Position numbers and translations under genes: made by a program
The notes under the pieces: generated by a model
The model's database searches: none
What the model saw: only the letters and a program-made list of their open reading frames with translations
What the model was told of the DNA's origin: nothing
Shown: positions 1,937-4,861 of the stretch, piece by piece
Layout of the letters: each line of letters begins with the position of its first letter
Position numbering within the stretch: the first letter of the stretch is position 1
IMG/VR virus record: IMGVR_UViG_2534681647_000023
DNA length: 11,008 nt
Source of the DNA: a virus
Taxonomy: Duplodnaviria; Heunggongvirae; Uroviricota; Caudoviricetes
Direction: 5' to 3' (one strand)

Positions 1937-2119
1937 ATGGAAGTCAACTTAATGACCGAAAAAGAGGTTTCTGATTTGTTACAAAAAAGGCGCACAGCTT
2001 TGTATAATTTGCGAAAAAAACACGGATTCCCGGAACCAGTACTTACTCATCCGGCGCGATATAGTCGTCAGGCCGTTGAACAATGGCTTAAAGCCGGAGG
2101 AATTAACCGAGCTGTTTAG
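1937..2119 (+). CDS. AlpA/Xis-family excisionase-like DNA-binding protein
   Basis: 60-aa ORF; AGGAG 1923-1927 precedes ATG 1937; sequence EKEVSDLLQKRRTALYNLRKKHGFPEPVL...RQAVEQWL fits the AlpA/excisionase winged-helix pattern; convergent with and overlapping the 3' end of the integrase gene by 17 bp. Confidence 0.65.
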   Translation: MEVNLMTEKEVSDLLQKRRTALYNLRKKHGFPEPVLTHPARYSRQAVEQWLKAGGINRAV

Positions 2120-3272
2120 CGTGCCAGAAAATTTTATCAGCATACAACTCATACGCATCTTTCTGTTCCGACAACCAGTCGTGTTTATTATACACGGCCA
2201 TAACTCCCCCAAGTTCATGCCCCAGCATTTTTTCAGTGACGTGGGGCATAATTCCTTCCCCAGATAAATTCGTTACCAGAGAACGCCTAAAATCATGCGT
2301 TCTCCATTCAGGAATATCAATTTTCTCCCTTAACTTTTTCATGTACAAATTAGCCGACGAACGATCAATAGGTTTATCTATTTCCTGCCCGGGGAATAGC
2401 ACATCAAAACCCGCATTAAGCAATCTCTCGATATAAGGTTTAACCTGAGTGAATACCGGACGCCGGATAATATTCCCCATTTTTGAATGCTCTTTTGGGG
2501 TTGTCCAGACCAGATCTTCCATGTTGAACTCACTGGCTGTCGCGAGACGTAGCTCAGAAAGTCTGGCCCCCCATAGCAATAGCAATTGATGTAACACCTT
2601 GTTGGAAGTAACTACTTTTGAGTTCTCCAGCGCCAGCCAAATTTTTGCCAGTTCCGTATAGGTAAGTACACGACTCCCTACATCTGGTTTTTTCCCAATA
2701 TTCTTAACACTAAGCTTGAGTAATTCGCATGATGGGATTAACTGGCGGCTGATACACCAGTTAATAACTGAACGCAGTTGTAACAACAAAACACGAGCCT
2801 TTTTCTTGTTGAGGCTTTCTTGTTTGTCAAAGAAACGAGCCCATGCCGATACTGGGATACTGGCAACTGGCGAGCCTTCAAACTGTGTGTACATAGTGTT
2901 GTACACGACGGATCTGTAAAGCGTCTGTGTATTGGGTTTCAGATCAGTAACATACTTATCCCACCACTGATCCAGGCATTCTTTTAATGTCAGTTCGCCG
3001 TCACTGGGCGCAAAATAATTTTTAGGGTTAACTCCCTTCATGTACAATGCGCGCATCTCACCGACGATAACACGCGCGTCCTTCAGTGAAGTAGACGGAT
3101 AGCGCCCGACAGTAAGACGTACTGGCTTACCATTCCAGCGATAACGGTACTGAAACGTGATAGTTCCTGCTGGAGTAATCCGCACACTTAACCCGTCACC
3201 ATCGGTGATTTCAGCAGGGCCAGAGTAGGGTTTTCCGTAGAGGCCTCGTAGTTTGGTGTCGCTCAGTGCCAA
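2103..3272 (-). CDS. Tyrosine recombinase / phage integrase, P4-type with N-terminal arm-binding (DUF4102-like) domain
   Basis: Track ORF 2103-3347 (GTG). Likely true start is TTG at 3272 (AGGA 9 nt upstream), giving the canonical MALSDTKLRGL N-terminus. Catalytic signature present: R (ARLSELR), H-x-x-R (HDFRRS), Y (VMAVYNKH). Confidence 0.9.
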   Translation of the reverse strand: MALSDTKLRGLYGKPYSGPAEITDGDGLSVRITPAGTITFQYRYRWNGKPVRLTVGRYPSTSLKDARVIVGEMRALYMKGVNPKNYFAPSDGELTLKECLDQWWDKYVTDLKPNTQTLYRSVVYNTMYTQFEGSPVASIPVSAWARFFDKQESLNKKKARVLLLQLRSVINWCISRQLIPSCELLKLSVKNIGKKPDVGSRVLTYTELAKIWLALENSKVVTSNKVLHQLLLLWGARLSELRLATASEFNMEDLVWTTPKEHSKMGNIIRRPVFTQVKPYIERLLNAGFDVLFPGQEIDKPIDRSSANLYMKKLREKIDIPEWRTHDFRRSLVTNLSGEGIMPHVTEKMLGHELGGVMAVYNKHDWLSEQKDAYELYADKIFWHAKQLG

Positions 3273-3398
3273 TGCTTTATATCCTGTACACAAGTTTATA
3301 ATGTATTCTGTACTCAATATGTACGCATTAGCAAGTGAACAAAACACTTTTCAACGCAAAAGAAGATAATCAACCATGAACAAAAACAAACTTACACC

Positions 3399-3428
3399 TT
3401 GATTTTAAAACCATAAAGACGGTATTAT
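3399..3428 (+). promoter_or_regulatory. Candidate sigma70 promoter for the tRNA gene
   Basis: ttgatt (3399-3404), 18-bp spacer, tattat (3423-3428), about 40 bp upstream of the tRNA 5' end. Inferred from sequence only. Confidence 0.3.
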
Positions 3429-3467
3429 CAGTCATATGGTGAACAACCAAAATCAATACGCAACAAT

Positions 3468-3542
3468 GTCCTCTTAGTTAAATGGATATAACGAGCCCCT
3501 CCTAAGGGCTAATTGCAGGTTCGATTCCTGCAGGGGACACCA
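3468..3542 (+). tRNA. argW: tRNA-Arg (anticodon CCU)
   Basis: Cloverleaf built by hand: acceptor stem GTCCTCT/AGGGGAC (one G-U), anticodon stem agccc/gggct with loop ctCCTaa, T-arm gcagg-ttcgatt-cctgc, discriminator A, encoded CCA at 3540-3542. Matches my memory of E. coli argW. Confidence 0.9.
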
Positions 3543-3703
3543 TTTATCAGTTCGCCTCCATCCGTACCAGTCCGCAAAATCCCCTGAATATCAAGCCTTC
3601 CGTAGATTCACAGTTCGTCATGGTTCGCGTCAGATCGTTGACAGCCGCACGCCATGACGGGTAAAAAGTGGATAAAATAATTTTACCCACCGGATTTTTA
3701 CCC

Positions 3704-4861
3704 ATGCTCACCGTTAAGCAGATTGAAGCAGCAAAGCCGAAAGAAAAACCATACCGCCTACTCGATGGTAATGGCCTGTACCTTTATGTCCCTGTATCAG
3801 GGAAAAAGGTATGGCAGCTTCGCTACAAGATTGACGGTAAGGAGAAAATCCTGACCGTCGGAAAATATCCGCTTATGACTTTGCAAGAGGCAAGGGATAA
3901 AGCATGGACTGCGAGGAAAGACATCTCGGTTGGCATCGATCCGGTAAAGGCGAAAAAGGCTTCGTCTAACAACAATTCCTTTAGTGCGATTTACAAGGAA
4001 TGGTACGAGCATAAGAGGCAAGTCTGGTCAGCCGCCTATGCGACTGAACTTGCAAAAATGTTTGATGACGACATTTTACCTATCATCGGCGGCCTTGAAA
4101 TTCAGGATATTGAGCCGATGCAACTGCTGGAAGTAATCCGCAGATTTGAAGATCGCGGGGCAATGGAGCGAGCCAACAAAGCACGCAGAAGATGCGGCGA
4201 GGTTTTCCGTTACGCTATTGTCACCGGAAGGGCTAAATATAACCCGGCACCTGACCTTGCTGAAGCCATGAAGGGATACCGCAAGAAGAACTTCCCGTTT
4301 TTACCTGCCGACCAGATCCCGGCATTCAACAAAGCACTTGCAACATTTTCAGGAAGTATCGTATCTCTCATTGCGACCAAAGTTTTACGCTACACAGCAC
4401 TAAGAACGAAAGAGCTTCGTTCCATGCAATGGAAGAACGTCGATTTTGAAAACAGGATTATCACCATCGAGGCCAGTGTGATGAAGGGACGCAAGATTCA
4501 TGTGGTTCCGATGTCGGACCAGGTTGTTGAACTTCTCACTACGCTAAGCTCCATCACTAAACCAGTATCAGAGTTTGTTTTTGCCGGGCGCAACGATAAG
4601 AAGAAGTCAATCTGTGAGAACGCTGTACTGCTTGTGATCAAACAAATCGGCTATGAAGGTCTGGAAAGCGGTCACGGATTCAGGCATGAATTCAGCACGA
4701 TTATGAACGAGCACGAATGGCCTGCTGACGCTATTGAAGTGCAACTAGCACATGCCAACGGCGGATCTGTGCGTGGGATTTACAACCATGCTCAGTATCT
4801 CGATAAGCGCAGAGAAATGATGCAGTGGTGGGCGGACTGGCTTGATGGGAAGGTGGAGTAG
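3704..4861 (+). CDS. intS: P4-type tyrosine integrase, IntS-like (CPS-53/KplE1 prophage integrase)
   Basis: Track ORF 3668-4861 begins with GTG; ATG 3704 gives MLTVKQIEAAKPKEKPYRLLDGNGLYLYV, the typical arm-domain N-terminus. Catalytic R (ALRTKELR), H-x-x-R (HGFRHE), Y (RGIYNH). Lies immediately 3' of argW as in E. coli K-12 (from memory). Confidence 0.9.
   Translation: MLTVKQIEAAKPKEKPYRLLDGNGLYLYVPVSGKKVWQLRYKIDGKEKILTVGKYPLMTLQEARDKAWTARKDISVGIDPVKAKKASSNNNSFSAIYKEWYEHKRQVWSAAYATELAKMFDDDILPIIGGLEIQDIEPMQLLEVIRRFEDRGAMERANKARRRCGEVFRYAIVTGRAKYNPAPDLAEAMKGYRKKNFPFLPADQIPAFNKALATFSGSIVSLIATKVLRYTALRTKELRSMQWKNVDFENRIITIEASVMKGRKIHVVPMSDQVVELLTTLSSITKPVSEFVFAGRNDKKKSICENAVLLVIKQIGYEGLESGHGFRHEFSTIMNEHEWPADAIEVQLAHANGGSVRGIYNHAQYLDKRREMMQWWADWLDGKVE

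Follow-up and report, generated by a model that had tools for sequence, protein, structure and literature searches.

Evidence that two unrelated integrative elements occupy opposite ends of a single argW tRNA gene in Escherichia coli O157:H7 prophage DNA

How can two complete integrase genes, one on each side, share a single intact tRNA gene? The question is raised by an 11,008-nt stretch of DNA (hereafter the window) filed in IMG/VR as a Caudoviricetes virus record, IMGVR_UViG_2534681647_000023, in which the tRNA gene argW lies between two integrase genes. A sequence-only reading of this DNA had proposed either a second element inserted in the 5' flank of argW or a tandem or composite island. 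We consider it very probable that the window holds two unrelated integrative elements seated at opposite ends of one tRNA gene, a lambdoid prophage on the left (5') side and an IntS element on the right (3') side. The three genes at the center of the argument are:

2103-3272, minus strand: left integrase, 389 aa, WP_001218308.1, TTG start (RefSeq annotation; PF13356 and PF00589).
3468-3542, plus strand: argW, tRNA-Arg(CCT), 75 nt, full length (ARAGORN; exact match to the argW of K-12 and of O157).
3704-4861, plus strand: intS (intC in EDL933 and Sakai), 385 aa, WP_000958700.1 (RefSeq 'prophage integrase IntS'; Pfam; same position in K-12).

That intact integrases stand on both sides of a complete argW, as first proposed, is borne out by ARAGORN (which finds this one tRNA gene in the window), Pfam, RefSeq and the catalytic residues R...HxxR...H...Y, located in both proteins. 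The left integrase does start at 3272 and is transcribed away from argW, with TTG rather than ATG as its start codon; the IntS-like integrase on the 3' side, in the same orientation as argW, starts 161 bp after the tRNA and not 160 bp as had been given. Both had been called 'P4-type', and they do share the N-terminal domain PF13356 (E-values 4e-17 on the left, 2.3e-25 in IntS) as well as PF00589 (2.9e-17 and 1.6e-38). IntS also has the central domain PF22022, for which a significant match is absent from the left integrase, and the two proteins are otherwise distant, with ~29% identity over 93 N-terminal residues and barely any alignment elsewhere, so that the term holds in a loose sense only. 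Relatives of the left integrase align to it over residues 1-389. It is 99.7% identical over 389 aa to the integrases of Stx2a_F765, Stx2_3993 and other Stx2a-converting phages, and of the free phage phi296; 114 phage records carry an integrase at least 95% identical to it. The same protein accession is found in E. coli O157:H7 EC4115, and the protein corresponds to intW/ECSP3297 of strain TW14359 (PMC8309913).

Comparison with complete genomes places the locus. Positions 429-11008 of the window are 100% identical to EC4115, and at least 80% of the window is present in 112 complete genomes of our E. coli search. Of the 5,426 complete E. coli genomes compared, the left int-argW junction is present in 211, and in 151 argW is flanked by both integrases; most genomes carry the IntS element without the left prophage. 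In EC4115, a ~62 kb lambdoid prophage with stx2A/B fills the interval between yfdC and argW; the left integrase is its terminal gene, and stx2 lies ~25 kb to the left of the window. The empty arrangement yfdC-argW-intS, which had been given for K-12, is confirmed in the K-12 genome and is also found in O157:H7 strain 2149, where yfdC is directly upstream of argW. By these matches the locus is the known argW site of E. coli O157:H7, with a Stx2a-type lambdoid prophage at the 5' end of the gene and an IntS remnant at its 3' end.

The attachment sites of the left phage were defined by a three-way alignment of the window junction with its yfdC-side counterpart in EC4115 and with an empty site; the right junction thus comes from the window itself, and the left junction and empty site from EC4115 and strain 2149. 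Similarity to element-free genomes begins at window position 3464-3467. Three stretches follow from this and, on the IntS side, from a repeat of the argW 3' end and the published KplE1 architecture:

3273-3466, unstranded: P arm, phage DNA, part of attR in the lysogen (junction comparison; phi296 attP; alignment of 23 lineages).
3467-3491, unstranded: att core of the left phage, 25 bp, TGTCCTCTTAGTTAAATGGATATAA, common to attB, attL, attR and attP.
3520-3703, unstranded: attL of the IntS element, with the core TTCGATTCCTGCAGGGGACACCA in the argW 3' end (3520-3542), then an arm region overlapping the intS promoter.

The 25-bp core consists of one nucleotide upstream of argW plus tRNA nucleotides 1-24, that is, the 5' acceptor arm and the D arm. 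In the free phage vB_EcoP_phi296, attP is uninterrupted: a P arm identical to 3273-3466 is followed by the core and then by a P' arm resembling the one at the far junction of EC4115. In the Hafnia phage yong2 (integrase 86.6% identical), the core differs at a single position and no further part of the tRNA is present. At the yfdC-proximal junction of the source strain, the P' arm would be expected to carry AGTACnCAnnnATGTACACA. At the far junction in EC4115 (locus L002, 6740-6900) we found the native argW promoter, TTACCC-17-TATACT, and a 24-nt tRNA stub running into the P' arm. About 110 nt past this stub, at the end of a large LPD38-domain gene, there is a GC-rich hairpin, GCATGCCCCGCACTTCCGTACGGGGCATG.

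Since the core corresponds to tRNA nucleotides 1-24 and the attP of the phage carries the 5' fragment, the left phage is, to judge from these alignments, one that recombines with the 5' end of argW, in the reverse of the usual orientation. The earlier proposal of a second element on the 5' side thus stands, supported by the empty sites of K-12 and strain 2149, with the correction that the element did not enter the flank: recombination took place inside the gene, within nucleotides 1-24. Mechanistically, the left tyrosine integrase would recombine the 25-bp core of attP with the identical 5' sequence of argW, which would put the whole prophage between yfdC and argW. The tRNA gene would be rebuilt from 24 phage-supplied nucleotides and the host remainder, and would then be preceded by the P arm of the phage. 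Integration and excision at the 25-bp core would involve Int together with a candidate HTH_17 excisionase (1937-2119), and we presume that the prophage is still competent to excise today.

The element on the right uses the more common geometry, a conventional core in the argW 3' end ('STI' shape). Its attR is an argW 3'-end repeat, TTCGATTCCTGCAGGG-ACACCA, with one G missing, at 14644-14665 of EC4115 locus L001; this lies ~1.06 kb past the right end of the window and bounds an element of ~8.6 kb. A serine recombinase-family gene is found just inside this attR (EC4115 L001 13883-14665). A search for direct repeats, as suggested earlier, therefore defines the att sites of both elements: the 25-bp core for the left one, and the argW 3'-end repeat, seen in EC4115, for IntS. 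Nucleotides 1-24 of argW belong to the core of the left phage and the 3' ~23 nt to that of the IntS element, so the two cores sit at opposite ends of the 75-nt gene without overlap. This lack of overlap allows the two elements to be present together, and either could excise on its own with the tRNA left intact.

Tandem arrays are common at tRNA genes, and both integrases have the PF13356 arm-binding domain. One could hence suppose that the two elements are stacked at one shared att site in the argW 3' end, or that both integrases belong to a single composite island. The k-mer scans of the window and EC4115 find an argW 3'-end repeat only to the right, at L001 14644; no 3'-end fragment lies to the left of the gene, where the repeat is instead of tRNA nucleotides 1-24, and the attP of the free phage has the 5' core only. 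Nor do the integrases look like a pair, given their low identity and the fact that most genomes have the IntS element without the other. We thus rejected tandem use of one att site, and the comparison of junctions rules against the tandem or composite island of the sequence-only reading, which we hold to be highly improbable.

We then considered whether the left integrase might be beside argW by ancestry or by coincidence, with its att sites elsewhere. Empty sites exist within the same serotype, the duplication of the 25-bp core flanks the prophage exactly, and the attP of the free phage matches; the left att sites are thus at argW itself. The arrangement is also conserved across genera with near-constant spacing. 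A scan of one genome per species returned 33 loci with relatives of the left integrase, and in 22 of them (integrases 57-91% identical) a tRNA-Arg(CCT) gene is read divergently, with 171-204 bp (in most cases 192-196 bp) separating its 5' end from the start of int. These come from Erwinia, Enterobacter, Pantoea, Brenneria and Xenorhabdus, and further from Providencia, Tatumella, Salmonella, Morganella, Proteus and Rouxiella. Most relatives at or below 63% identity have no tRNA at that position; for example, the Stx phage WGPS6, with an integrase 56% identical, integrates in sbcB. An ancestral or coincidental left integrase is therefore refuted by empty sites, core duplication and attP, and we give it next to no credit. 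Because 22 cross-genus loci share the divergent tRNA-Arg(CCT), targeting of the argW 5' end is, as far as these alignments tell, a stable property of this integrase lineage.

What transcribes argW in the lysogen? Its native promoter is 62 kb away. The sequence-only reading had credited the full-length tRNA with its own candidate promoter. The tRNA is indeed full length, but the promoter candidate upstream of it is phage DNA and the native promoter is at the far junction. When the P arms of 23 lineages are aligned, the 194-bp spacer between int and the core averages 0.94 bits per column and most of it diverges freely. One feature in it faces argW:

3399-3428, plus strand: sigma-70-like promoter candidate, TTGATT-18-TATTAT (consensus scan; alignment of 23 lineages).

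The TTG of the -35 element is invariant, and TAnnAT is kept in the -10 element of 22/23 lineages (T1, A2 and T6 in all 23, A5 in 22), with positions 3 and 4 variable. The spacer is 18 nt in every lineage, and the end of the -10 element is 39 nt from tRNA +1 in all but one. With the native promoter stranded at the far junction and int read in the opposite direction, we infer that TTGATT-18-TATTAT replaces the native argW promoter in lysogens and drives argW.

The conserved TTG-18-TAnnAT could instead be a binding or bending feature of the recombination arm, serving a protein such as IHF, Xis or Int; transcription of argW would then begin at some other place or reach the gene by read-through. 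A fixed distance to the core (39 nt in 22/23) would be expected from the architecture of an intasome too. But the pattern of conservation is that of a sigma-70 promoter, with TTG and -10 positions 1, 2, 5 and 6 kept while 3 and 4 vary, and we found no other conserved promoter-like element facing the tRNA. Read-through is unavailable, since the upstream gene, int, is transcribed oppositely. Moreover, integration removes the native promoter and yet the lysogens are successful lineages. A purely architectural role for this feature thus seems unlikely, and a phage-borne promoter for argW is the reading we retain.

The phage may bring in more than a candidate promoter. In many relatives (loci L009-L039, and the E. 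coli record ON470608, L007 1234-1305), the first 24 nt of the tRNA supplied by the element carry C5 (or U4), as compared to U5 in the argW of K-12 and O157. In C5 lysogens, the rebuilt tRNA would have a C5-G68 pair in place of U5.G68. These differences in the element-supplied 24 nt mean that lysogeny can alter the sequence of the tRNA itself. We put forward, tentatively and as rather unlikely, an extended proposal: that in lysogens the native argW promoter and its short leader give way to a phage promoter with a predicted ~32-nt leader and, in some relatives, tRNA positions 4 and 5 are exchanged as well. Expression of this rare, AGG-decoding tRNA would then be set by the phage, and the level of the tRNA, or AGG-rich phage and virulence genes, would be measurably affected. 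If the promoter swap alters argW expression, the locus would offer a modest, testable example of a host tRNA gene rewired by a prophage.

The same P arm should hold the arm-type sites at which the N-terminal domain of the left integrase would bind. Two families of repeats are candidates:

3285-3292, 3309-3316 and 3320-3327, plus strand: three TGTACnCA motifs (1.76-1.97 bits per column, 97th-99th percentile of the spacer).
3336-3343, 3377-3384 and 3440-3447, plus strand: three TGAACAA(A/C) repeats, within 112 bp of the P arm.

The second family is the one put forward in the sequence-only reading. The three repeats are present, the first of them 2 bp away from the coordinate then given. That they are the arm-type Int-binding sites of the left element gains something from their clustering, as the window has five TGAACAA(A/C) matches against 1.3 expected, a number reached in 2/200 shuffles. 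Good conservation is seen for copy 1 (1.50 bits per column, 82nd percentile), which sits in a conserved block, GCAAGTGAAC(G/A)A, i.e. GTGAAC(G/A)A; the GAAC core persists at copy 3 in most lineages. Copies 2 and 3, at 0.83 and 1.01 bits per column (51st and 63rd percentile), are nonetheless indistinguishable from the spacer background, copy 3 falls in the predicted tRNA leader just past the predicted start, and no copy was found on either strand of the P' arm. With only copy 1 well conserved among the 23 P arms, the TGAACAA repeats make poor candidates, and we judge it quite unlikely that they are the arm-type sites.

GTACnCA does far better. EC4115, phi296 and yong2 each have two further copies in the P' arm, +86 and +98 relative to the core; these keep the orientation of the P-arm copies although the sequence around them diverges. 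The window has five GTACnCA-type matches where 1.1 are expected. The copies of the P arm are ~146-181 bp from the core and those of the P' arm 86-98 bp. Strong conservation together with repeats in both arms, at fixed positions and in one orientation, is the pattern of arm-type sites, as in lambda. The five direct repeats (three in P, two in P') are for this reason the best candidates for arm-type Int-binding sites, an identity that we infer from this pattern. Since the region upstream of int is a recombination arm, Int binding there probably also autoregulates int, as Panis et al. predicted for OD shapes (PMC2951348).

Several points weigh against the picture of two elements and a phage-borne promoter. 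The window covers only the last ~3.4 kb of the left prophage, so for this strain any stx carriage and the far junction are read across from its relatives. The first 428 positions differ from EC4115, and positions 1-900 are contiguous in 0/5,426 complete genomes. The first GTACnCA motif of the P arm abuts the Shine-Dalgarno sequence of int (AGGA), and this adjacency to the ribosome-binding site could explain part of its conservation. Likewise, the fixed 18-nt and 39-nt spacings of the promoter candidate could partly reflect intasome geometry rather than promoter function. Finally, we did not locate an int promoter: the sole minus-strand consensus match in the spacer, CTGATA-18-TAAAAT (3431-3402), was rejected as its -10 element is unconserved among the 23 lineages. 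Weighing these against the junctions, the core, the attP of the free phage and the cross-genus arrangement, we still favor two unrelated elements at opposite ends of argW.

The remainder of the window belongs to the bodies of the two elements:

1-1936, plus strand: early-left region of the same lambdoid prophage, with DUF551, an MT-A70 methyltransferase (647-1273), DUF1382 and DUF1627 (Pfam; EC4115 annotation).
1937-2119, plus strand: candidate excisionase (recombination directionality factor), 60 aa, HTH_17 (Pfam; labeled 'excisionase' in AP012534 and LC710660).
4862-11008, unstranded: Sp16-type P22-like remnant body, with ejection-protein genes, DUF2824, a truncated tail needle knob gene and hypotheticals (Pfam; EC4115 annotation).

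The left prophage extends past the left end of the window. The candidate excisionase gene and int converge and overlap by 17 bp (2103-2119), which implies that their transcription is uncoupled and potentially mutually interfering, unlike that of lambda. At 1-615, the region with the DUF551 gene adjoins the gene for the MT-A70 methyltransferase, a join contiguous in 0/5,426 complete E. coli genomes; in EC4115, a DUF4752 gene, Ant and a small open reading frame (ORF) lie between the two. By this comparison, window 1-615 is an early-region mosaic or a deletion specific to the source strain. In AR-0428, the best full-length match, the mosaic is a different one and the same integrase gene is split by IS1203 (L008 9435-11917); that prophage is presumably locked in place.

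On the other side, the IntS remnant runs past the right end of the window. A 378-aa ORF (5036-6172, minus strand) has a P22 gp16-type injection translocase domain (residues 12-217) and a C-terminal acyltransferase_3 fragment that falls below the Pfam cutoff; this make-up suggests a chimera or the product of a deletion. The ORF of the tail needle knob (7316-7885, minus strand) lacks its N-terminus and is annotated as a pseudogene in EC4115, as would be expected if the IntS element were a P22-like prophage in decay. The hypothetical ORFs of the remnant gave no matches in PADLOC and Pfam scans: neither database matched the ORFs at 9233-10645 (minus strand, 470 aa) and 7868-8563 (plus strand, 231 aa), and PADLOC did not match a 58-aa ORF at 10832-11008.

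The locus matters beyond its architecture. A Stx2a phage at argW marks clade 8 of O157:H7 and related lineages of high virulence, and polymerase chain reaction (PCR) assays routinely target the int-argW and int-intS junctions; the locus is a standard epidemiological marker. To this our analysis adds the exact 25-bp core, the reversed orientation that permits coexistence with an IntS element on one 75-nt gene, a tRNA promoter candidate that is phage-borne and conserved across Enterobacterales, and the GTACnCA candidates for arm sites.

The two-element arrangement at argW is itself already known, and so is the general class of elements that target a tRNA 5' end. Elements of this kind, which recombine with the 5' portion of a tRNA gene and so have the target the other way round, were reportedly described by Zhao and Williams in 2002. 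Recombination at the 5'-distal part of tRNA genes has been called 'considerably less frequent' than 3' targeting (PMC6563490), and SIT and OD shapes together make up less than 8% of 1,273 integrase-tRNA pairs (PMC2951348). The left phage resembles the 5'-targeting elements of 'OD' shape (Panis 2010): it likewise carries a tRNA 5' fragment, with int divergent from the tRNA, and has a candidate for the promoter that such an element would supply. An explicit account of 5'-end targeting or of promoter replacement for argW Stx phages was not found in the searchable literature.

The closest relatives of the left prophage are the Stx2a prophages at argW. A Stx2a phage occupies argW in EC4115, in TW14359 and in all clade 8 strains tested, and the Stx2a phage types PST2 and PST3 do likewise. 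In these prophages (EC4115 and TW14359; phi-Stx2a beta, gamma and delta, Ogura 2015; PST2 and PST3, Yin 2015) the neighbors are the same, argW and intS, and the end of the EC4115 prophage is 100% identical to window 429-3466. The window differs from them in its positions 1-428, a mosaic unlike every complete genome searched, and in stopping short of stx. The typing primers argW-C and argW-D (PMC3519850) map to 3053-3072 and 3495-3514 and would thus amplify the int-argW junction, and a PCR from the phage integrase intW to intS, spanning both integrases, has also been used (PMC8309913). Stx-negative phages at argW have been reported as well (PMC3519850).

The right-hand element corresponds to KplE1 (CPS-53) in K-12 and to Sp16 in O157 Sakai, the latter named at argW in PMC3519850; its site-specific recombination module at the argW 3' end has been described as IntS/TorI (Panis et al. 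2010, PMC2951348). The shared features are an intS 161 bp downstream of argW, an attL lying over the intS promoter, as in the published KplE1 attL/P_intS architecture (PMC2951348), and a core in the tRNA 3' end. The cargo is different: a P22-like ejection and needle remnant here, yfdGHI in the KplE1 of K-12.

The attP of lambda, in which P1, P2 and P'1-3 flank the core, offers the last comparison. Here too, direct repeats in the same orientation are found in both arms (three in P, two in P'), and the integrase is heterobivalent, with an N-terminal arm-binding domain. Unlike in lambda, the core is inside a tRNA gene, and int points away from attP and converges with xis, an arrangement also reported for Stx phages and KplE1.

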